Assembly (NCBI GenBank): GCA_035221665.1
Contig: CM069160.1
Location: 15,190,001 to 15,254,000 of the forward strand
Source: Okamejei kenojei
Taxonomy: Eukaryota
Direction of reading: 5' to 3'
DNA length: 64,000 nt
Numbering within the stretch: position 1 is the stretch's first letter; every line of letters begins with the position of its first letter. The notes under the pieces were generated by a model. It was given only the letters and a program-made list of their open reading frames with translations. It had not been told where the DNA came from and made no database searches. Positions 26,482 to 59,399 of the stretch are shown here, piece after piece. Made by a program: the position numbers and the translations under genes.

Positions 26482-27941
26482 CTGGAGATGAGTGAGAGTG
26501 AGGGACACATAGAGACAGGAGACGGTGCAAATCCCCAGTGTTTATCAGTGACACAATTACTGATCATATTTTACTTTGGAGGCATTGCGAAGCGATAGGC
26601 AGAGGGAGCCCGCTCCTCCAGCGTAAGTTTAAAAACGGCCCGCAGGTAAGTACTTACCATTCTGAGGTCGTTTGTTTGGCTCTGTGTGCTGTTGTTTTAC
26701 AGAGTGCACCATGGAGTCCAGAAAGTCAAGAAGAGCCGCTACTAAAGTTGCTGCTGAGGAAGGAGGCAGCCAGCGGCGTCCGAGATCTCCTGAGCTGGTG
26801 GTTCAAACCGCAGCCCCCGACTTCACGCCGCTACAGGCCACAGGTGTTCCTGGGACTGGCGGCAAAACAACCCGGAAGTCGGGCAGGTCCGCTGACTCGG
26901 CTGAGTCCGGACTGGAGGACACCCCACTCGCGTGAAGCGACGGCGGTCGACTGTCCCGCATGGAGCGGATGGTGGAGCAATTGCTCCAGCGTGACCTGCT
27001 ACAGCAGGGGCAGAGTCACAGTGGGTCTCCTAGCAGACCCACGGCAGCTTCCTTTTCAGGACTGCCAAATGTCTCACCCTCTTCGCAGGGGAGCATTAGG
27101 AGTCAAAACTGGGCTGACTCTGAAGATGGGGGCATGGCTGAAGATACGACAATGCTAGGGGTGCCAGAAGAGGAGCTTTTGGGTATGGTCACTAAATTTG
27201 CATTGCCTACCCAAAAAGGGCTGCTGTTACATCCTAAGTTGGCAGCCAGTATAAATTACATGGCGACAAACCAACTACAAGAACAAGCCATCAATGATAC
27301 GGCAGCAAAGTACCTAGCTCCGGAGAATTGCATCTCCCTCAATGTGCCTGCTGTTAACAACCCCGTTTGGGGTAACATGAGCCCTGGGATAAGGAGCCAA
27401 GAAGTCAAACTCCTAAAAATCCTTAAACTGCTGGCTGCTGGGATTACGGCAGTTGCCTGAACAGTGGATGGAGTTGATATGCCGGAGGAGCTGCAGGACG
27501 CGCTAGCTCTCTTATGTAACACTCAATATGAGATCAACAGTTACAGGAAGAGCGTCATCCGGACTGCACTCAACCCCAAGTTTGCGGGGTTGTGCAGACC
27601 CAGCAGTGCACAGCCGCCAACATTGCTATTTGGGGACAACCTGCCAAAACAGGTCAAAGACCTCGACGAGGAGGCGAAAGCTATTGGCATGATTAAGATG
27701 CCAGCTGCCACCAAGTCCCCATACCAGTGGCGGCAGCACCCCTATGCATCCACCAGCAGACAACGCTTCGGCGATAGACCAACTGCTGGTGAAAGCTCGA
27801 AGGCCGGACAACCTGCTCAACGTTCTTTTTTAGACCATGGCCCAGCACGGCCTTCTTGGAAGATGCGCCAACCCCACACCACAGCGCCTCCACACCACAA
27901 GAAACAAGGACAGAGGCAACCAACGCAGCACCGCCGGTAAC

Positions 27942-29829
27942 CATGGAGGTAGGTGGGTCTGGTTGCCCCATGAACATCGCATGTCTAGACTCCTCACGGG
28001 TTGGTGGACGGTTGCACTTGTTTTGGGATGCATGGAGCACTTTGACAATTGATCCTTTCATACTGGAAAGTATTCAGGAATATAAAATTGAATTTGTACT
28101 TTCACAGAAAAAAAAGACAGAAGGTCATGCTGAACTTCTAAGACTAAATTCAAAAGGGGTAATTGAGAAAACTAAAACAGAGTCTCATGAGTTCGTATCG
28201 AACATTTTCACTAAAAATAAAAAAGACGGTGGATGCCGCATCATCATTGATTTGACTGAACTGAATACTTTCGTGCAGTATGCCCATTTCAAAATGGAAA
28301 ACTTTGTCACAGCCAAACAACTAATTTCCAATAGGTACTTCATGGCTTGCATCGACCTAAAGGATGCATACTATTCAGTACCAATAGACAAGGATCATCG
28401 CAGATATTTGAAATTTGTCTGGATGGGGCAGCTCTGGCAGCACAAAGCACTACCTAATGGATTGTCATCAGCGCCCAGACTGTTTGCCAAATTATTAAAA
28501 CGAGCTTTAGCATGTCTCAGAAAACAAAATCATATTGTTATGGCTTACCTCGATGATATTTTAATCGTGGGAAAAACTTTGGAGTTGGCCAAACTGGCCA
28601 TCTCAGCCACCGAGCACCTATTTCAAAAGCTGGGATTTGTCATTCATCCAGATAAATCAAAATTGATGCCTTCTACTACTATGAACTATTTGGGTTTCAC
28701 AATTGATTCTGTTCATATGTCTGTCACTTTGCCACCAAACAAAGCGTCAGACTTGATAAAAGCATGCAACAGCCTTACTGGCACCAGGAAACCATCTATT
28801 CGGCAAGTAGCCAGAGTGATTGGGAAGTTAGTGGCTGCCTTTCCAGCCGCACAATTTGGCCCACTACATTACCAAAACCTACAAAGGGCAAAAATAGCAG
28901 CTCTCAAGCACCATGCAGGCCATTTTGACAGGCCAATGCAATTACCAGGGAAAGCGAAATTAGAATTACAATGGTGGATAGACAATGCACGACATTGCTC
29001 TAACCCCATCACTATCATAAATCCCTCGGTTATACTACAAACTGATGCCAGCGCAAAAGCTTGGCGAGCAACTAATACCTCCTCCAGTTGTGGTGGTAGA
29101 TGGAGTGCACATGAATTAACTCTACTTCCGGCACTAGGAATTAATTATCTAGAAATGCTGGGAGCATTTCATGGACTCCGAGCTTACTGTTCGGACATGC
29201 ACCATCTGCAAGTACGTTTACAGATTGACAATACCACTGTGGTGGCTTATATCAATCATATGGGTGCAATAAAGTCGATATCCTGTGACGAATTGGTCAA
29301 TACAATCTGGCACTGGTGCCTAGAAAGGAACATTTGGATATCAGCCACTTACCTTCCAGGTAGGCTAAATACAGTGGCGGACACCAGGTCACGCAAATTT
29401 AATGACAACACCGAATGGATGTTTGACCGAAAAGTGTTTGCCGACATTGTAGTTCGGAATGGAACACCTGATATCGACCTTTTTGCATCCAGACTCAATC
29501 ACCAAATATCAACATATGCTGCATGGGAACCAGACCCTGGGGCAGTAGTGATGGATGCTTTCTCGCTACACTGGGGGGGATTTGTTTTTCTATGCATTTC
29601 CCCCTTCTGCCTCATCAGTCGGATCTTGCAAAAAATTAGACAAGACTCCGCATCGGGTATTCTGGTTGTTCCCGACTGGCCGACTCAACCGTGGTTCCCT
29701 GTGGTACAAGACATGGCCACAGAACCTTGCATCCCAATAAATAAACGTCCGAGTCTATTGGTACACCCTGTGACAGGGGAGAGTCACCCGTGCCATGACC
29801 GGATAAACCTGTTGGTTTGCAGGATTTGA
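27942..29829 (+). CDS. DIRS pol: reverse transcriptase, RNase H and Dam-like methyltransferase remnant
   Basis: IDLKDAYY, LPNGLSSAPRLF, AYLDDIL, QTDAS, INYLE, DNTTVVAYINHMG, DLFASRLN; the YAFPP motif is shifted into another frame (ORF 29555-29740). Confidence 0.85.
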
Positions 29830-30170
29830 AAAGGCCACTTCTGGATTATGGACTCTCCGACCGAACAATTAATGTCATCACAGCATCGTGCAGGGAGTCC
29901 ACCAGTAGACAATACCTCACATACGTGAAGAAATGGGAGGTGTTTTGCTCAAAAACGAACACCACATATGGCACAGCCACCATGACGGAAGTGCTGGAGT
30001 TCCTGGCAAGCCTTCATTTCGATGGGGTTTGAGCTACAGTGCCATCAACTGTGCCAGGAGTGCCCTATCTAACTATCTTGGGCGAGGGTGCGGTGACCTT
30101 GCAGTGGGATCTCACCCTTTGGTGTCAGAATTAATGAGGGGAATATTTAATTCAAATACCCCCAGGCCCA

Positions 30171-33100
30171 TGAACAACGGCAGCTACAGGAACAAATTAG
30201 ACAATTGGATATAGATAATGCTAAAGACCCGTCCATGGATAAACACAATAAAATATTAATACTAAAATTCAAATTAAATAAATTACTATCAGAGAAACTT
30301 ATAAGATTACTCCAAATTACAAGACAGGAACAGTTTGAATTTGGGGAGAAGCCTCACAAACATCTCGCACGCCAATTAAAAAAACGAGAAAAGGAACACA
30401 CGATTTCAAAGATTAAATCAGACAAAGGGGAAGTATTAACATTACCGAATGAAATTAATAATAGATTTGTGCAATTTTATTAGAATTTGTATCCATCCAA
30501 AACGACAACGGACACCAACGTAATCAATGAGTTTCTGGATAATTGCAATCTTCCCAAACTAGAATTGCAGGAACAAGAGGAATTGGGAGCACAAATCTCA
30601 AATAAGGAAATAGAAGAAACAATATTCTCATTAAAAAATGGAAAAACACCAGGTCCCGACGGATTTAGTAATGAATTCTATAAAAGTTTTTACGATATAT
30701 TTAGTCCTCGTCTACAGAAAATGTACACACACGCTTTCAGAGAACAAATATTACCTGATACACTAGCTGAATCTACGATTACATTAATACTTAAGAAAGA
30801 AAAAGATGAGGAAGAACCTGGATCCTATAGAGCTATCGCGTTGTTAAATACAGATAAAAAAATATTAGCAAAAATATTAGCAAGAAGATTAAGTAAGTAC
30901 GCCACTAAACTAATACATCCAGGTCAAAACGGGGTTTATCCCTAAGAGACATTCATTTAATAATTTGAGACGACTGCTTAATATAAAGCACTCACACCAA
31001 ACTAAAGATCCAAATCTCGCAATTATTTCGCAGGATGCAGAGAAAGCATTCGATCAGGTTGAATGGAAGTATATGGTTAAGGTATTGCAAAAATTTCAAC
31101 TGGGAGAGAATTTCATTCAATGGATTAAATTAATATATAATAAGCCAACGGCCAGAATATTAACTAATAATATTTTATCCACGAAATTTCAACTGTCAAG
31201 GGGTAATAGACAAGGTTGTTCATTATCACCATTGTTATTTGCCCTCATAATTGAACCACTAGCGGAAAGTATTAGAACTCATCCGAATATCCACGGATAT
31301 AAGACAAAATATTCATACAATAAATTATCATTATACGCTGATGGTGTACTTTTGTACATCACAAAGCCTCATATCACTATACCCAATTATTTTTAAATTT
31401 AATTGAGGATTTTGGTTCATTTTCAGGTTACAGAATAAACTGGAATAAAAGTGAAATCATGTCAATAAAACCGAAAGATTCTATACATCTCGTACAATTT
31501 CCTTTTAAAATAGCTGGGGGGAAATTTAAATACTTGGGCATTGAAATTACTAGAAGATACCAAGACATGTTTAAAGCAAACTATAACCCTGTACTTAAGA
31601 AATTACATAATTTAATTAAATTCTGGAAAACGCTCCCGATGTCCTTAATAGGTCGAAATAAAATGCCATAAAAATGATTTTTCTACCACAAATTCTATAC
31701 TTGTTCCAATCAATCCCACTATATCTACCCAAAAAGTTTTTTTTTTAAATTGGACTCAGATATTACAAATTTTATTTGGGATTATAAGACCCATAGAATA
31801 CAAAGACCACACCTGAATAAACCCAAAGTAGTAGGGGGATTAGCACTCCCTAATTTTATGTATTATTATTGGTCGGTAAATATTAGAAACATGATTCAAT
31901 TGTTGGATAATGCTCTTCATCAACCGGAATGGATCATTATGGAAAAAGAGGATTGCTCCCATTTAATATTGGTGCAATCCTTCTCTCACCAATGACGGTG
32001 AATAATACAAACTACAACAAAACCCCAATTATACATAGTACAATCAGAATTTGGAAATAAATAAAATACAATTTAAAATTAAGAAACTTATCTCTCCTAT
32101 CTCCTATTGCTAAAAACCCTCTTTTTCAACCCTCGATTATAGACAAAGCATTCATACAATGGGAAAGAGCAGGAATTAAAACTTTGGGAGATTTGTATGA
32201 TACGGGAAAACTATTATCATTTAAACAATTACAACTAAAATACAATCTGGGTAGCAATCAGTATTTTAAATATTTCCAAATATGTGATTATTTGAAAAAA
32301 CACGCACGTGAATTTCACAAAATGCCATTAGACTTACTAGATGAAGTAATGAATACAAAGGCGGAATCACCAAATTTAATTTCACATATATATAATATTA
32401 TACTAAATGCAGTAATACCAACAACGGAAGGTATTAGAGGTGAGTGGGAAAACGAACTAAGCATAAAAATTTCCACTGAAAGGTGGAAAGAATACTTATT
32501 AAATGTGCACAAATGCTCAATTAACGTAAGACACACTTTAATACAATTTAAAATCATACATAGATTATACTACTCAAAAACTAAATTAAATAAATTTTTC
32601 CCTAACGTTTCACCAATTTGTGATAAATGCCATTGTCAAGAACCTACTATAGCGCACTCATTCATCTTTTGTACAAAAATTCAAAAGTTTTGGATTGAAA
32701 TCTTTGAAATTTTCACAAAAGTGTTTAAAATAAAAATGACACCAAAGCCAGAATGAATTATTTTCGGAATGACAGAAGGTAGTTCGGAATTAAAAGCGTA
32801 TCAAAATAATTTATTTGATTACGGCTTAATAATAGGAAAAAAACTCATCTTAAAATTCTGGAAAAATGCTCCTATACCAACATTAAATATGTGGATTTCA
32901 ACTATGTTTGAAACACTACATCTGGAAGATATGAGACTCCACCTGGAAGGAAAATCAGAACGCTTCTATCAGATGTGGTCTGCATTTATAGAATTATTAC
33001 AAAGATAGGGCCTTGGTAGAGGGGGGATGAAAAATTATCGAGTTGGTGGATTCCTTTTGCGTGATATATATATAACATAGTAACTGGCTTTTTTTAAAAT

Positions 33101-38810: not shown

Positions 38811-39089
38811 CTAAACAAAAACAGACAGAGTAATAAAGAAACGGATACAAACCCCGGCGAGGCTGAGATAGATAACTTCTCCCAAATGGATATTTCTGGA
38901 AACACCTCAGCACATTATTGAACAAATCTCTGTGGTTGTGGTGTTTGGTGACTTTCACCATTTATTCTCATTCCCCGACCGGCGACAGGGAAATATTCCC
39001 CGTGCAGAGAGCGGCGGCAGGGCAGCAGGCAACATGCGTGACCCGGGGGAAGGGGTCGACCACCGGTGACCCAGTAAAATAGTAGGGAG

Positions 39090-40410
39090 AAAACGGAGAA
39101 ATACTTCAAATCGCCCGTCTGAATTGCCATGGGCTTCAATGAGGAGTGTCTTGATATCCCCGTGATATGGAGTCAGGAATTGTGCGAGTGTGGCTACAAA
39201 CTCTTGGATGGTGAGGTGCGGGAAGGTGTACACCATGCTCCGGGCTGAATCCTCTCTCTCCAAAAGTTCCATCAGGAACCCGGACAGGAACTGGGAATGT
39301 ATTTGATCAAATCTCCATCTGTGAACACAATGTTCTTCTCAGCCACTCCAGTGAAGGCCATCTGACCAACCCTCAGTAACACCTCACAGGGGCTCCCAAT
39401 CTCACGGCCGTGGTTTTTCAGGATGTTGTAAATACAGTAGCAATATAGTTGGGTGATGGTCTTGGGAACTCGCTGCGGGTCCCGATGTGTTTGTGTGAAG
39501 AAGGGGCTCAGGCCGAGGATCCAGCAGTAGGAGGGGTTGTAGCTCATGGTGTACACGATCTCGTTCTCCACATGTTTGAAAACAGCTGCTGCCACCGTCT
39601 CATTTTAACATACCTGGTGAAATATTCCTTCCGTTCCTCACCAACAAATCCCAGGATTTCAGCTCAGACACTGATCTCTGCCTTTTCCAGTAAATGTAAT
39701 GCAGTGGGGCGGGAGGTCACTAGCACTGAACACCCTGGGAGCAGCTTGTGCTAGATTAAACTGTACACAATGTCAGACACTTCACACCACAACTCAGAAT
39801 CTGGGCACTGGTGCTTAGGTTCTGTGTCTCTCCGACTGTTAGCAAAATCGATTCTGCCCTTGAATTCATCCAGACCGTCGAATATAAACAACAATCCCTC
39901 TGGGTTCTTCCAGACCTCTCCCAGCATATTCCCAAAGTAAGGATACTGAGCCAGAATCAGCTCCCTCAGGGTTATTCTGTCTTTAATCTTGTTTAAATCC
40001 CAGAATTTGAAACTGAAGACAAATTGGAATTGTTGGAATATTTTCCCTGTGGCCCAGTCATGAACAATTTTTTGCACCATTGTTGTTTTTCCGATCCCCG
40101 GGACTCCGGCCACGGCAGACGAACTCCCAGATTTGAATTTGCTCGCCGAAATGTTCTGGAATAACTGATCAGTTCGGATTTTTTCAAACTCTCCCCCGAG
40201 ATGTTCCCCTCTCCACTCTTCATGGTCCCGGCCACTTGCCAGCAGCTTATGTTTCACCAGTGTCCGATCTCGGACAGTGGAGATGACCGTGAGCTCAGCG
40301 TGTCGATCAAGCAGCTGGAAAACCTTAACCTTCTCATTCATCAGGATGGTGTTCACACTCAGTGTTTCAGTCTGTGCCTTCAGTGTCTCCATGAGCTTCT
40401 GCTAAATATC
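39090..40410 (-). pseudogene. NACHT-domain exon of an NLR, pseudogenised and 3'-deleted
   Basis: Walker A GVPGIGKTT, Walker B LLFIFDGLDE, VLVTSRP, YNPSYCWI, FPHLTIQEFVA; stops at 40402-40404, 39751-39753 and 39664-39666 plus frameshifts; homology ends after GRFEVFLRF. Confidence 0.92.
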
Positions 40411-51320: not shown

Positions 51321-51525
51321 GCGATTCTGAGAGACGCGATTAGTTCAGTTGAGAGATACAGCGTGGAAACAGGTCCCTCATGTTATCTCGCTTTGTCGAC
51401 CACTATCTTCTCACTCGGGAGCAATTTTACTGCAGGGACAATTAACCTACAAGCCCACACGTGTTCTGTGATGTGAGATTGGATGGAGAGAGAGAGGGGA
51501 GGCTGGAGAGAGGACGGTTTTAGCG

Positions 51526-51568
51526 CAGTTGGCATCTGGTTGCTGAATTTCCACTTCCACTTGTGGTT
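51526..51568 (+). promoter_or_regulatory. Candidate lymphocyte promoter: E-boxes plus ETS-RUNX composite
   Basis: CAGTTG 51526, CATCTG 51533, ACTTCC 51553-51558, TGTGGTT 51562-51568, 10 nt before the leader ATG. Confidence 0.5.
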
Positions 51569-51577
51569 TATCCAGTG

Positions 51578-51623
51578 ATGATGGGGCCAGGGGCCATTGT
51601 GTGGATCCTGTCTGTGGCCGCAG
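51578..51623 (+). CDS. Leader (signal peptide) exon of NKp30/NCR3-like receptor
   Basis: MMGPGAIVWILSVAA G|gtgagt; the phase-1 donor joins the V exon to give ...VAAGVVA/EKI. Confidence 0.7.
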
Positions 51624-52214
51624 GTGAGTTGGCTTTCTGATTCTCAGTGGGGTCGCTCTTGGGAAGAGAGGGAGGTGGGGGTGATGAGGGACCCGCCTCA
51701 CCCAGTCCCGACGTAGTGCAGCCCATGGAGTGCAGCAGCAGCGCCTCGCCCGTGGCCCCGTCGGTCGGTCGGCAGCCCGGCCAGCTGTCCGACCTTTGGA
51801 CCTTCACTTATCGCTGACACCACCACCTTCTCACGGCCGATCGTCGGTTCGTGAGTTGGACGGGGCGCCGGACTTTGCGCGCAGCCAAAACTCCTCAGCT
51901 GGCCCGCCAGCTGGGCTTTGTGTGCAGTCCAGCACCCCGGCCAACTCATCATTCACCCACCCACGGCCGAGTCGGTCAACGGATTGCCGTCGGGAATTTG
52001 TCCCGTATTTTGACCTTTTGTCCCTTATTTGGGAGTGAGGATAGTTGGCGACCCACGGAGACAATAGACAATAGGTGCAGGAGTAGGCCATTTGGCCCTT
52101 AGAGCCAGCACCGCCATTCAATGTGATCACGGCTGATCATCCCCAATCAGTACCCCGTTCCTGCCTTCTTCCCATATCCCCTGACTCTGCTATCTTTAAG
52201 AGCCCTATCCTAGA

Positions 52215-55200
52215 GCCCTAAGGGGAGACTTTAAACTAGATCGGTTGGGAGGAGGGACTCAAATAGAGAAAGCAAGTGGACCGTGTGTGAGGCAGGAGGC
52301 AGAGAAGGGAAGCAGTCAGACGCAACATGTAGGGGGGAAAGAAGAAAAACATAATAAACAGAGAATAAGAGGTGGTGGGTTTCTTAACTGTGTGAGCAGA
52401 GAGACAGAGGGGTGTAAAATGAGGATAGAAGCAATAGGTAGCAAGGTGAAAAGTGGCAGGCATACAAATCCAGGGCAAAAATCAAAAAGGGCCACCTTTC
52501 AACATAAATGTAAAAGGGGCAAGAGCGTTGTAAAAACAAGCCTGAAGGCTTTGTGTCTCAATGCGAGGAGCATTCGTAATGAGGTGGATGAGTTGAATGT
52601 GCAGATAGCTATTAATGATTATGATATAGTTGGGACCACGGAGACATGGCTCCAGAGTGACCAAGGCTGGGAGCTGAACATCCAGGAATATTCAATATTC
52701 AGGATAGACAGAGAGGAAAAGGAGGTGGGGTAGCGTTGCTGGTTAGAGAGGATATTAACGCAATAGAAAGGAAGGACATTAGCTTGGAGGATGTGGAATC
52801 GATATGGGTGGAGCTGCGAAACACCAAGGGGCAGAAAATGCTAGTGGGTGTTGTGTACAGGCCACCTAACAGTAGTAGTGGAGTTGTGGATGGCATCAAA
52901 CAGGAAATTAGAAATGCGTGCAACAAAGGTAAAACCGTTATAATGGGTGACTTCAATCTACATATAGATTGGGTGAATCAAATTGGCAGGGGTGCTGAGG
53001 AAGAGGATTTCTTGGAATGTATGCGGGATAGTTTTTTAAACCAACATGTAGAGGAACCAACGAGAGAGCAGGCTATTCTAGACTGGGTATTGAGTAATGA
53101 GGAAGGGTTAGTTAGCAGCCTTGGGCAAGAGTGAACATAATATGGTTGAGTTCTTCATTAGGGTGGAGAGTGACATTGTTAATTCAGAAACACGGGTCCT
53201 GAACTTAAAGAAAGGTAACTTTGAGGGTATGAGACATGAATTGGCCAAGATAGACTGGCAATTGATTCTTGAAGGGTTGACGGTGGATATGCAATGGAAG
53301 GCATTTAAAGACTGCATGGATGAACTACAACAATTGTTCATCCCAGTATGGCAAAAGAATAAATCAGGGAAGGTAATGCATCCGTGGATAACAAGGGAAA
53401 TCAGGGATAGTATCAAAGCAAAAGATGAAGCGTACAAATTAGCCAGAAAAAGCAGCCTACCAGAGGACTGGGAGAAATTCAGAGACCAGCAGAGGAGGAC
53501 AAAGGGCTTAATTAGGAAAGGGAAAATGGATTATGAAAGAAAACTGGCAGGAAACATAAAAACTGACTGCAAAACCTTCTATAGATATGTGAAGCGAAAA
53601 AGATTAGTTAAAACACATGTAGGTCCCTTGCAGTCAGAAACAGGTGAGTTGATCATGGGGAACAAGGACATGGCAGACCAATTGAATAACTACATTGGTT
53701 CTGTCTTCACTAAGGAAGACATAAATAATTTGCCGGAAATAGCAGGGGATCGCGGGTCAAATGAGATGGAGGAACTGAGTGAAATCCAGGTTAGCTGGAA
53801 AGTGGTGTTAGGTAAATTGAATGGATTAAAGGCCGATAAATCCCCAGGACCAGATAGGCTGGATCCCAGGGTACTTAAGGAAGTAGCCCCAGAAATAGTG
53901 GATGCCTTAGTGATAATTTTTCAAAACTCTTTAGATTCTGGAGTAGTTCCTGAGGATTGGAAGGTAGCTAATATAACCCCACTTTTTAAAAAGGGAGGAA
54001 GAGAGAAAACGGGGAATTACAGACCAGTTAGTCTAACATCGGTAGTGGGGAAACTGCTAGTCAGTTATTAAAGATGGGATAGCAGCGCATTTGGAAAGTG
54101 GTGAAATAATTGGACAAAGTCAGCATGGATTTACGAAAGGTAAATCATGTCTGACGAATCTTATTGAATTTTTTGAGGATGTAACTAGTAGAGTGGATAA
54201 GGGAGAAGCAGTGGATGTGTTATATCTGGACTTTCAGAAGGCTTTCGACAAAGTCCCACACAAGAGATTAGTATACAAACTTAAAGCACACGGTATTGGC
54301 GGTTCAGTATTGATGTGGATAGAGAACTGGCTGGCAGACAAGAAGCAAAGAATAGGAGTGAACGGGTCTTTTTCAGGATGGCAGGCAGTGACTAGTGGGG
54401 TGCCGCAAGGCTCAGTGCTGGGACCCCAGCTATTTACAATATATATTAATGATTTGGATAAGGGAATTAACTGCAACATCTCGAAGTTTGCGGATGACAC
54501 GAAGCTGGGGGGCAGTGTTAGCTGTGAGGAGGATGCTAGGAGGCTGCAAGGTGATTTGGATAGACTGGGTGAGTGGGCAAATGCATGGCAGATGCAGTAT
54601 AATGTGGATAAATGTGAAGTTATCCGCTTTGGCGGCAAAAGCAGGAAAGTAGACTATTATTTGAATGATGACCGATTAGGAAAAGGGGAGATGCAACGAG
54701 ACCTGGGTGTCATGGTACACCAGTCATTGAAAGTAGGCATGCAGGTGCTGTGAAGAAAGCTAATAGTATGTTGGCATTCATAGCAAAAGGATTTGAGTAC
54801 AAGAGCAGGGAGGTTCTACTGCAGTTGTACAGGGTCTTGGTGAGGCCACACCTGGAGTATTATGTACAGTTTTGGTCTCCTAATGTGAGGAAAGACATTC
54901 TTGCCATAGAGGGAGTACAGAGAAGGTTCACCAGACTGATTCCTGGGATGGCAGGTCCTCCATATGAAGAAAGACTGGATAGACTCGGCTTGTACTCACT
55001 GGAATTTAGAAGATTGAGGGGGGATCTCATAGAGACTTACAAAATTCTTAAGGGGTTGGACAGGCTAGATGCAGGAAGATTGTTCCCGATGTTGGGGAAG
55101 TCCAGGACAAGGGGTCACAGTTTAAGGATAAGGGGGAAGTCTTTTAGGACCGAGATGAGAAAATCATTTTTCACACCGAGAGTGGTGAATCTGTGGAATT

Positions 55201-55320
55201 CTCTGCCACAGAAGGTAGCTCTTTTGGCTAAAGGGATCAGGGGGTATGGAGAGAAGGAAGGTACAGGATACTGAGTTGGATGATCAGCCATGATCATATT
55301 GAATGGCAGTGCAGGCTCGA
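52215..55320 (+). mobile_element. CR1 LINE with near-complete ORF2 (few frameshifts) in the leader-V intron
   Basis: ORFs 52245-55274: LNARSI, TETWL, YRPP, GDFN, KSPGPD, QHGF, PQGSVLGP, FADD; same subfamily as 33503-37679. Confidence 0.92.
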
Positions 55321-56235
55321 ATTTATCTGCAGTTAGAGAAGTCAATGTTCATACCACTGGGGTGTAAACTACCCAAGCAAAATATGAGGTGCTGTTCCTC
55401 AAATTTGCGCTGGGCCTCACTGACAATGGAGGAGGCCCAGGACAGAAAGGTAGGATTGGGAATGGGAGGGGAAGTTGAAGTGCTGAGCCACTGGGAGATC
55501 AGATAGGTTAAGACGGACTGAGTGGAGGTATTCAGCGAAACGATCGCCGAAGTAGAGAACTTTACACCCCAGCGGTATGAACATTGACTTCTCTAACTTC
55601 AGATAGGCCTTGCTTTCCCTCTCTCTCCACCACCTTCCCCCTCCCAGTTCTCCCACTAGTCTTACTGTTTCCGACTACATTCTATCTTTGTCCCGCCCCC
55701 TCCCCCGACATCAGTCTGAAGAAGGGTCTTGACCCGATATGTCGCCCATTCCTTCTCTCCAGAGATTCTGCCTCACCCGCTGTGATACTCCAGCATTTTG
55801 TGTCTACCTTGGACAGGTACATGGACAGGTTCCTGTCTTCTCCCCATATTCCCTGACTCCGCTATCTTTAAGAGCCCGATCTAGCTCTCTCTTGAAAGCC
55901 AGTCAGCATCTCTTGAGAACATAAACAGGCGAGGTTTCGGGTCGTGCCCGTGAGGGTCCATGTAACCAGCGGGTCCCAAGTACCAAGTATGGGCCAAGTG
56001 GGACTAGTGGAAATGCGACATGTTGGTTGTGGACAAGTTGGGCGAGGGGGGGGGGGCTGTTTCCACGCTGTGCCACTGTGACTGTACACAAATGGACTCA
56101 AAGTGCTGGAGTAGCTCAGCAGGCCAGTCAGCATCTCTGGAGAACATGGACAGGCGAGGTCTCAGGTCGGGCCCGTGAGGGACCGTGTAACCAGCGGGTC
56201 CCAAGTACCAAGTAGACTTTGCTTGCCGCCCCCAG

Positions 56236-56574
56236 GTGTTGTCGCTGAGAAGATCGCAGTCATTCAGGACCCGTCCCCCATTGCGGCCACTGAAGGTGAC
56301 ACGGTGATTCTCCCGTGTAGTCACAATGCCACGGATCAAGTATGGGCCAACCATTGGTTCAAGGGAGCCACAAACGGGATGTATGTTTCCAATTATACCA
56401 GAGAATACAGAGGTCGTGTCTTCAGATTCAAAGTGCCGGATGCACCAACTACAGACATGGACGCTTCTATACAATTGAATAACGTGCAGATTAACGATTC
56501 CGGTCTGTATGTCTGTCAGGTGAAAACTCTGTGGAGCGAGGCATATGGGACAGGGACGTATCTCACGGTGAACG
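56236..56574 (+). CDS. Ig V-set exon with germline-joined J-like strand, NKp30/NCR3-like
   Basis: cccag|GT; VILPCSHN..NHWFKG..YRGRV..ASIQLNNVQINDSGLYVCQV..YGTGTYLTVN G|gtaagt; open, 339 nt, phase 1-1. Confidence 0.88.
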
Positions 56575-56654
56575 GTAAGTGATCACTCCGCTATCTCCAG
56601 TGAATCAGACCCACAGCCCCCGAAAGAAGTTCATCAAAACTGGACAACATTGGA

Positions 56655-56900
56655 AGAGTGAGTGAGTGTGACTGAGAGAGTGAGTGTGAGTGAGTGAGTG
56701 TTTGTGAGTGAATGAGCGAGTGAGTGGGTGAGTGTTAGTGAGTGGGTGAGTGTTAGTGAGAGAGTGAGTGAGTGAATGAGTGAGTGAGTGTGTGAATGGG
56801 TGAGTGAGTGAATGTGGGTGAGAGAGTGAATGAGTGAGTGGGTGTTAGTGAGTGTGAGTGAGTGAATGCATGAATGAATGGATGAGTGATTGAATGAATG
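56655..56900. repeat. (GAGT)n/(GAAT)n microsatellite
   Basis: Direct. Confidence 0.9.
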
Positions 56901-57193
56901 AAACGTTATTGTCAAATGCCCTAACTAACTAGATTTCCATGCTGTACCTTTCAATCAATCAAATCGAGTGAGAGAATTATGTCACTGATCCATAAAACTG
57001 GGTTATATAAAAACAATGCATTTCTTCAGGCAACCACATCCAAACAAAGAGTGTAGAAAAGAAATGCAGATGCTGGTTTACACCGAAGATAGACACAAAA
57101 AGCTGGAGTAACTCAACGGGTCAGGCAGCGTCTATGGAGAGAAGCAATTGGCGACATTTCGAGTCAAGACCCTCCTTGAAACTGACCTTCAGA

Positions 57194-57221
57194 CTGAAGA
57201 AGGGTCTCGGCCCGAAACGTC
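57194..57221 (+). ncRNA. Minimal hammerhead ribozyme motif (Penelope-derived)
   Basis: CUGAAGA-A-GGGUC-UC-GGCCC-GAAAC-GUC: intact core boxes, 5-bp stem II, self-complementary ACGU stem III. Confidence 0.6.
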
Positions 57222-57762
57222 ACCACTTCCTTCTCTCCATAGATGCTGCCTGACCTGCTGAGACTTCTCTAATATCAGATAGCCCTTGCTTTCTCTCTCC
57301 ATCTTCTCCCCCTTCCCAGTTCTCACACTAGTCTTATGTCTCCTACTGTTTGTGAGTGAGTGAGATACTCCAGCATTTTGTGTCTACCTTGGACACATAC
57401 ATGGGCATGATAGGTTTGGAGGGATATGAATCAGTTGGGACTAGTGTAGATGCACCATGTTGGTCGGTGTGGGCAAGTTGGGCTGGGGGGGGACGTTTTT
57501 CCCATGTCCCTAGTGTGTGTAGGATAGTGTTAGTGTGCGGGGATCGCTGGTCTGTGTGGGCCGAAGGGCCTGTCTTTGTGCTGTTCCTCTAAACTAAACT
57601 ACACCAAGCTAAACTAAACTAAACTAAATCTGAAGAAGGGTCTCAACCAGAAACGTCACCTATTCCTTCACTCCATACAATGATAAACGGTTCAGATCTG
57701 CCAGCAAGTAGCTGTGTGCTGGATTAACCTAAAGGGGCCGAATGGCCTGTTGCTGTTGGCAG

Positions 57763-57897
57763 GTTCTGAGCAGCGCTCCACAGGGATGATAAAAAGTGCC
57801 ACCATTCGCTTGCTGATCCTGGCATTGTTGGTCGTGTTGGAAGGCTGCATCGTTCTAGTCATCATCCACCTCGTCAGGCAATCCCGCAGAGACAAAT
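57763..57897 (+). CDS. Stalk/transmembrane exon of the NKp30-like receptor
   Basis: ggcag|GT..SEQRSTGMIKSATIRLLILALLVVLEGCIVLVIIHLVRQSRRDK T|gtaagg; 135 nt, phase 1-1. Confidence 0.8.
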
Positions 57898-58012
57898 GTA
57901 AGGAGTATTTAACTCTGACCAGTCGAACTGGGTGGGTCAGTGTGTCACACACTATCCATCCCCCCTCTGGGACTGGATGGGACAGTGTGTCACACACTAT
58001 GGTTTCTGTAAC

Positions 58013-58465: not shown

Positions 58466-59399
58466 TGATTCTAATTAAGATTTTTTGTTTTCTCTAGAAT
58501 GCCAGAAATTGAGGGGAGACCTTATGGGGCATAGAACAGAGAAGAATTTAGCACATGAATGGGCCCTTAGTTCGGCCCACAATCTTTGTGACAAGTATGA
58601 TGCCTGGTTAAACTGGTTTCATCTGCCTGTTCCTTGTGTCTCTAATAGTATATTTTCTCTTTTTATCTCCATTCTTTCACAGGTACTATTCAGGATCAAA
58701 GGTGGGTGGTTGCTACACACTTTAACATTCAGTGTAACATTCCCTCTTCTCCCCTCTCCCATCAGGCAAGAGGTACAGAAGTGTGAACACGTACACCTCC
58801 AGATTCAGGGACCGTTTCTTCCCAGATGCTCAGGCAACTGAATCATCCTACCACAACCAGAGAGCAGTGCTGAACTCCTATCTACCCCATTGGCAACACT
58901 CGGACAAGCCTTGAGCGGACTTTGCTGGCTTTACTTTGCACTGAACTCCACTCCATTACCATGTATCTGTATACTGTACATGGGTTGATTGTAATCATGT
59001 ATTGCCTTTCTGCTGACTGGTTAGCAGGCGGCAAAAAGCTTTTCACTGTACCTCGGTACATGTGACAATAAACTGAACTGAACTAAACTAAGAGATGAGT
59101 ATAATTGTTGTGTAAAAGGGCACATGCAAAGATAATTGTTCTCTCTTTGACACCAGCTGCTGGAGTAACCCAACGGGTCAGGCAGCATCTAAGGAGAAAA
59201 GGAATAGGTGACATTTAGGGATGCGATCCATCTTTGACCCAAAACGTCACCCATTCCTTTTCTCCGGAGATACTGGCTGGCCCGCTGAGTTACTCCAGCA
59301 TTTGGTGTCTGTCTTCAGTGTAAACCGGATATCTAATGTGCCAAGCAACCCGTTGGATTGCCTTGGAATTTGTGGACATATTGGTTACTGCTGACCAGA

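Follow-up and report, generated by a model that had tools for sequence, protein, structure and literature searches.

NKp30, the product of NCR3, is one of the few natural killer (NK) receptors that can be traced to sharks, and the shark NCR3 family, its expansion and its linkage to the major histocompatibility complex (MHC) were reportedly described by Kinlein et al. in 2021. Eight shark NCR3 genes (MT914154-914161) appear in the accessible part of one paper (PMC12227049), and, as far as the available text of this and a second account goes, the family, its expansion and its MHC linkage have already been published (PMC12227049, PMC10751288). According to the accessible parts of three papers, an Arg near the outer end of the transmembrane (TM) segment is a known contact for FcR-gamma/zeta in CD89 and KIR2DL4, the same contact of the NKp30 Arg being held by assumption (PMC13107469, PMC8102735, PMC6514059). 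Here we describe a gene of this family, g1, in a 64,000-nucleotide stretch of the skate Okamejei kenojei (the window; G000:C30:15190001-15254000, within a 2.76-Gb genome; feature positions are in window numbering). Like the nurse-shark proteins QTT61898.1 and QTT61904.1, g1 has a variable-joining (VJ) domain encoded by a single exon (40-42% identity), and it shares with the shark NCR3 multigene family the tree group, the location on an MHC contig and the tandem cluster. With QTT61904.1 as the query, the best hits in the genome lie in the cluster of g1; neither nurse-shark protein is its ortholog, and QTT61904.1 has a Lys in the TM segment. We tentatively propose, as a reading that is possible but somewhat short of probable, that g1 is a spliced NCR3/NKp30-family gene which originated when the 5' part of a gene for a two-V receptor with immunoreceptor tyrosine-based inhibitory motifs (ITIMs) was duplicated, and which could act as an activating partner through FcR-gamma/CD3-zeta.

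Exons, family and splicing of g1

Three exons on the forward strand form the core of g1: a leader exon of 46 nt (51578..51623; a split leader, the first ATG of which is kept in the paralogues), a V exon of 339 nt (V1; 56236..56574) that encodes a VJ-type immunoglobulin (Ig) domain with three N-glycosylation sequons, and a 135-nt exon for the stalk and TM segment (57763..57897) with an Arg codon at 57807-57809 and a Glu codon at 57840-57842. All are in phase 1, have GT donors and AG acceptors, and join into a single open frame of 173 codons that contains YGTGTYLTV, ATIRLL and VLEGCIV; the first of these ends the V exon as a J-like G strand, in keeping with a non-rearranging VJ domain. This structure, first set out in an earlier note made from the letters of the DNA, was confirmed by re-reading and by a Pfam V-set match of the V exon (E 1.3e-11). 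As leader, V and TM exons also recur as a set in paralogous units nearby, the Pfam match and this recurrence rule out chance for the predicted three-exon arrangement. The 42 nt kept before the ATG (51536-51577) hold a TGTGGTT common to most paralogues and an ACTTCC present in g1 alone, which we take to be RUNX-like and ETS-like motifs, respectively.

The V domain of g1 belongs to the shark NCR3/NKp30 family, as the earlier note had held, and this placement is supported by sequence, tree, fold and MHC contig. In a tree of 94 domains it lies in a group of 35 rows together with nurse-shark NCR3 QTT61898.1 and elephant-shark NCR3 (support 82/88; 81/91 for the NCR3 group in a 31-row subset), and SIRP-like rows form a separate group (97/88); support for the NCR3 group is moderate, and the rows exclude human NKp30, CD28/CTLA4 and named T-cell receptor V domains. 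The anticipated grouping with NCR3 was thus obtained, with SIRP apart, but forcing the g1 V domain together with the SIRP-like rows was not rejected by the approximately unbiased (AU) test (p-AU 0.27). The V1 domain groups with domain 1 of Mobula hypostoma XP_062903900.1 (100/94 in the 94-domain tree, 98/92 in the 31-row tree), the closest relatives of g1 being elasmobranch proteins and the nearest of them coming from this ray. A single clade with the Lys-bearing QTT61904.1 was rejected (p-AU 0.011), and g1 is, to judge from the trees, not of the charged-TM activating shark NCR3 subtype to which that protein belongs. Among solved structures, human NKp30 ranked 1-4 with a 22-row profile which included NCR3-named rows (1e-27 vs 1e-20 for SIRP), and 2-5 by single sequence, behind one single-chain variable fragment; word-seeded protein searches using the V domain as query gave no match. 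An AlphaFold model of the domain (predicted local distance difference test 89) was matched best by NKp30 in VIA-align (Z 15.0, root-mean-square deviation 2.8, 109 aligned) vs 13.9 for PILRA and 13.8 for SIRP, and Foldseek yielded a tie between SIRP and NKp30. The MHC class I matches are all on the contig of g1 (17/17, at 1.1-8.5 Mb), with g1 at 15.2 Mb and so 6.8 Mb or more away; a search for MHC class II gave no match and is uninformative.

Membership in three other groups was considered and rejected. SIRP proteins have a V domain followed by C1 domains, or a SIRP-type V; the 1.2-kb intron between the V and TM exons of g1 contains no C1 exon, and the SIRP rows grouped apart, although, as above, a forced grouping was not rejected. 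In CD300 and TREM the V domain has a second disulphide, and that of g1 has two Cys only. The CD28 family carries, according to the accessible part of one paper, a PPP or EIP motif in the loop of complementarity-determining region 3 (PMC11599192); both are absent from g1, the loop of which reads YVCQVKTLWSEAYGTG, and CD28, CTLA4 and CD28H were set aside as well.

Part of the V exon is contained in four runs of one study, none of them recorded as RNA. Contigs of these runs were aligned to 57700-57995, by which the TM exon was found covered in two of the four (X2 and X4; two samples; depth 2.6-4.2). The X2 and X4 contigs start exactly at 57763 and exit the TM exon at 57897, in agreement with the donor proposed for its end, and their loose ends correspond to 56628-56657 and 58771-58800, both of which are unique within 860 kb. 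Two GT-AG joints, 56657^57763 and 57897^58766, are carried by one 339-nt contig, which we read as spliced RNA. Of the part to the left of the 56657 joint, only the last 30 bases are seen. The Arg and Glu codons noted earlier are unaltered in the X4 contig (57763-57847, no differences).

Descent from a two-V receptor and origin of the tail

A survey of 660 kb from the window start, with five assembly gaps, gave matches to 7 leader, 11 V1 (one partial), 6 V2, 6 TM and 6 cytoplasmic mini-exons; in 200 kb upstream no related exon was found. When the three tyrosine-motif tail exons were searched in the same 660 kb, two sets were detected, behind g5 and g6 only, and none was found behind g1, g2, g4 and g7. 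These exons of g5 and g6 were identified by a hidden Markov model on the cluster DNA, and a genome search with the Mobula tail as query gave no match. The unit g6 (G000:C30:15515000-15550000, reverse strand) is a two-V receptor with a nine-exon tail; its frame stays open between V2 and the stop and encodes SIYLPM, IQYAII and GYDEL, one donor being uncertain. Its near-identical inverted partner g5 (G000:C30:15386500-15425000, forward strand), likewise a two-V receptor with a nine-exon tail, has a V1 that is 83% identical to that of g1; the pair could reflect either a real inverted duplication or an error of the assembly. The V2 exon present in g2, g3, g4, g5 and g6 is missing from g1, with an approximate deletion site at 57262..57496. 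Mobula XP_062903900.1, which has an orthologous V1 (50%), the same TM frame and a homologous first cytoplasmic exon, consists of two V domains, a TM segment and a long tail with IYTPM, IQYAVI and GYDEL; g1 differs in having neither V2 nor the tyrosine tail. At the level of sequence, comparison with this ortholog and with the paralogue g6 shows g1 to be a one-V, tail-less derivative of a two-V, ITIM-bearing receptor.

The cytoplasmic exon, which the earlier note could not find in the window, is supplied by the joint 57897^58766, spliced in both runs (58766..59072, forward strand; stop at 58912-58914, AATAAA at 59067-59072), and encodes a tail of 49 aa in frame with the TM exon. Its sequence is homologous to the C-terminus of the reverse-transcriptase open reading frame of a long interspersed nuclear element (LINE; E 5e-9) and is repeated in the region (15-27 hits per position in 860 kb). 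The terminal exon of g1 is thus derived from a LINE retrotransposon, of which it represents the 3' end, and none of the four Tyr of its tail is in an ITIM consensus. The ancestral first cytoplasmic mini-exon (58683..58701, forward strand; 19 nt, phase 1 to 2), which occurs in 6/6 TM-bearing units, is skipped in both contigs seen. A further candidate exon at 58499 was rejected; its frame is closed at once by a stop, and the paralogues do not conserve its AG.

The earlier note had singled out the TM Glu as a special feature that might alter adaptor choice. Glu-Gly-Cys is found in 6/6 paralogous TM exons, inhibitory ones included (in g5 in a shifted frame), and in ungapped alignments the position is occupied by Gln in Mobula and by Glu in two horn-shark proteins (Heterodontus XP_067865378.1 and XP_067865773.1, which have the same TM frame). 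The Mobula and Heterodontus proteins retain tyrosine tails together with V2 or additional V domains, and the residue at the position of the g1 Arg is Leu or Val in them. Because Glu or Gln stands at the same position in ITIM-tailed relatives without the Arg, the Glu is ancestral and common to ITIM-tailed receptors, and because it is shared with ITIM-tailed paralogues, it is no sign of an altered adaptor choice. The Arg codon is CGC in 4/4 tail-less TM exons, and the corresponding codon is CTC (Leu) in 2/2 tailed ones; two Arg (IRLR) are present at the TM start of g2 (G000:C30:15272576-15272784), g4 (G000:C30:15362121-15362343) and g7 (G000:C30:15810980-15811112). The Arg accordingly derives from Leu by a single base (CTC>CGC), and its presence in tail-less and absence from ITIM copies has the putative pattern of paired receptors. 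The residue of interest in the g1 TM segment is, as far as these alignments tell, the newly gained Arg rather than the Glu. Compared with g6, the 26 TM codons of g1 differ at 16/78 nt vs 74/899 in two flanking intron blocks (Fisher p 0.0015), and nine of the ten replacements remain hydrophobic, the tenth being the Arg; under random mutation such retention has a P of 0.005-0.008 if all 16 changes are counted and of 0.13-0.18 if half are assigned to one branch. No TM excess was seen between g1 and g2 (p 0.27). The g7 TM exon combines stretches of the tail-less type with stretches of the ITIM type, a mosaic that suggests gene conversion. Just downstream of g7 (G000:C30:15770000-15799300) lie approximately 30 kb of evenly spaced copies of one short repeat.

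Proposed function and rival explanations

Based on these comparisons, we propose that the gene of a two-V, ITIM-bearing inhibitory receptor was duplicated in its 5' part to give g1. The V2 exon and the tail exons with tyrosine motifs are gone from g1, a LINE-derived exon without an ITIM forms its end, and it carries at the outer TM end the Leu>Arg change that all tail-less copies share. Use of the consensus V donor (56575) would join leader, V, TM and tail to a predicted type I protein of 222 aa. Its Arg may contact the two Asp of an FcR-gamma or CD3-zeta dimer, in the manner of CD89 and KIR2DL4; FcR-gamma-like and CD3-zeta-like TM exons with Asp are present in the genome. One ligand could then inhibit cells when bound by the ITIM paralogue and activate them when bound by g1, and a cryptic donor at 56657 may divert part or most of the transcripts into a V-only form that is secreted or decays. 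The Glu, which is older than g1 within the subfamily, likely serves helix packing (self-association) rather than acting as an adaptor switch. Overall, g1 is likely an on-switch or a decoy partner. It might further be speculated that an NK-type activating receptor re-arose within the NKp30 family by duplication, by acquisition of an exon and poly(A) signal from a LINE and of an Arg under fast TM evolution, and by a splice toggle between activator and decoy. We consider this combination possible but doubtful; if true, the NKp30-type design of Arg plus short tail arose convergently, more than once, from ITIM-bearing members.

A number of observations weigh against the proposed activating receptor. 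The earlier description of g1 as an intact NKp30-like activating receptor stands with respect to family and open frame, but not to subtype or to descent, which is from an ITIM receptor; moreover, the one upstream splice present in the contigs cuts the product off before the TM segment. As to the junctions predicted in that note, an exon after 57897 was indeed seen, but neither the leader-V joint 51623^56236 nor the canonical 56574^57763 was found in the contigs of the runs. The sole V-side joint is 56657^57763 (two runs, two samples, one study), with an 83-nt extension of the V exon to the cryptic donor (56575..56657, forward strand; loose contig ends of X2 and X4), and the extension contains an in-frame TGA (56580-56582), with which the predicted product would be leader-V-GK-stop, of 130 aa. 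The main product may hence be a secreted single V domain or a target of nonsense-mediated decay, g1 being a soluble decoy or a silenced gene in which the TM charges are irrelevant. Both runs with the TM exon join to 56657, behind the TGA, and the stop lies 75 nt ahead of this joint with a second joint following; we nevertheless rate this explanation as somewhat unlikely, since the depth is only 2.6-4.2 and assembled contigs lose minor splice forms. The canonical donor (ACG/GTAAGT) is nearer to consensus than the cryptic one (AGA/GTGAGT), the GT of which (56658-9) belongs to the first unit of a GAGT repeat. The cryptic donor appears recent, because its flank occurs once in 860 kb, solely in the g1 copy, yet the TM segment has changed under hydrophobic constraint. 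One V contig of run X1 starts at 56214 and ends at 56576 plus one non-matching base; these ends are compatible with splice branch points, proving nothing, and its last two matching bases, which the canonical joint would also have, are a weak hint only. Alternatively, g1 could be a recently formed pseudogene with frames that are not yet broken: tandem duplication would have produced it as a side product without a tail, its transcription would be no more than noise, and it would be decaying as its neighbours are. Three deletions would fit such a fate: that of V2, that of the tail, and one of approximately 3.2 kb upstream, where homology to the paralogues restarts only 42 nt before the ATG (junction 51517..51536, from comparison with g2, g3, g4, g5 and one more leader copy). 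So would a damaged acceptor: the AG 21 nt further on (57784) is the in-frame one in three cleanly readable paralogues (g2 and g6 included; g4 and g5 have indels there, and g7 has lost it), and in g1 its pyrimidine tract has a 5-nt deletion, the upstream AG (57763) being used instead. The terminal exon and poly(A) signal come from a LINE, the depth is very low, and the nearest copy, g7, is broken, with the 5' part of its TM exon replaced and an in-frame stop. However, no exon of g1 has a stop or a frameshift, other samples share the TM haplotype with one listed difference, which is synonymous, and the TM segment shows the hydrophobic constraint. Several neighbour units have frameshifts, often close to assembly gaps, and these may be consensus errors. 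We therefore regard decay as unlikely; if g1 is merely decaying, the locus illustrates ordinary birth-and-death evolution.

Support for an intact inhibitory partner is weakened, since the V1 exons of both g5 and g6 are frameshifted in this assembly. The link between Arg and tail loss counts as a single event, which duplication has multiplied, rather than as four, the excess of TM differences could stem from gene conversion of the introns (compare the mosaic TM exon of g7), and the pN/pS ratio (nonsynonymous to synonymous differences) of V1 against three paralogues (0.47-0.98) is uninformative. The best hydrophobic windows of 19 and 21 residues just exclude the Arg, and only that of 23 residues includes it; being followed by 22 residues and at the window edge, it may therefore lie at the membrane surface. 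Moreover, the genome already contains three separate genes of NCR3 type that have a Lys in the TM segment. That the Arg together with the mid-membrane Glu-Gly-Cys brings about an unusual adaptor choice (e.g. an acidic zeta/gamma mode like that of CD16A) or a disulphide-linked or polar dimer seems improbable to us. The two residues are 11 apart and lie on the same helical face (20 degrees), but this spacing is too large for an Arg-Glu salt bridge within one helix, and the Glu is shared by all six TM exons of the paralogous units and by the ITIM-tailed relatives from the horn shark, with Gln in Mobula. A precedent exists in CD16A, which, in the accessible part of the source, binds zeta/gamma via an FxxDT motif with a TM Asp (PMC13107469); the g1 TM segment lacks this motif. 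Finally, tail-less units might share one ITIM tail in a protocadherin-like manner, splicing from the mini-exon to that of g5, approximately 150 kb downstream on the same strand. The phases fit (the mini-exon ends in phase 2, in which the next tail exon of g6 starts), and tail-less units are upstream of a tailed one in both arms of the cluster. Yet the observed joint enters the local LINE exon and skips the mini-exon, many acceptors lie between, and the same layout is expected from 5' partial duplication, which makes such sharing extremely improbable.

Neighbouring loci and comparison with known systems

The three NCR3-like genes with a TM Lys (G000:C30:14242788, 14352791 and 14579237, reverse strand) have the TM sequence WQLLIMGVKLATF (GVKLA), resembling that of QTT61904.1, and are likely, by this resemblance, the standard activating subtype of the genome; their V domains also fail to group with QTT61904.1. 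Two further neighbours (G000:C30 14559715 and 14608574) have uncharged TM segments. Single-exon VJ domains at 22.28 and 22.55 Mb of another contig (G000:C8; L019 and L021) group with the whale-shark two-V proteins P0144/P0150, outside the NCR3 group. Within the window, a fragment of an NLR-like gene with a NACHT domain (38958-40401, reverse strand; Pfam NACHT E 4e-24) contains frameshifts and stops, and a retroelement (26666-30211, forward strand) has a 678-codon reverse-transcriptase frame and overlapping upstream frames, a layout that we take to be DIRS-like. Many LINE and Tc1-like pieces are found elsewhere in the window.

Database protein models already include ITIM-type NCR3 members, and in the literature covered we located no report of skate NCR3 tails, of LINE-derived tails or of a Leu>Arg gain in tail-less copies, the main shark NCR3 papers being outside this coverage and possibly describing ITIM-tailed or Glu-bearing subtypes. 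We thus view g1 as a modest variant of a known family, the LINE-derived tail and the Leu>Arg gain being the parts for which no report was located. The cluster holds an ancestral ITIM gene beside derivatives that document steps from an inhibitory to an NKp30-like activating or decoy receptor (V loss, tail loss, capture of a LINE exon, Leu>Arg), and offers a direct test of paired-receptor evolution in cartilaginous fish. Like human NKp30 (NCR3; PDB 3noi), with which its V domain shares 32% identity, g1 has one V domain, a short stalk, an Arg near the TM start and a short tail without ITIM. Unlike in human NKp30, the Arg of g1 is probably an independent, recent gain from an inhibitory ancestor, the TM segment has a central Glu and the tail is LINE-derived. 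In the paired receptors SIRP-alpha/beta, KIR and LILR, including the activating KIR of macaques in the accessible part of one account (PMC8102735), the activating form arose, like g1, from an inhibitory relative by loss of the tail and a basic TM residue; these receptors belong to other families, and the activating role of g1 is a predicted one.

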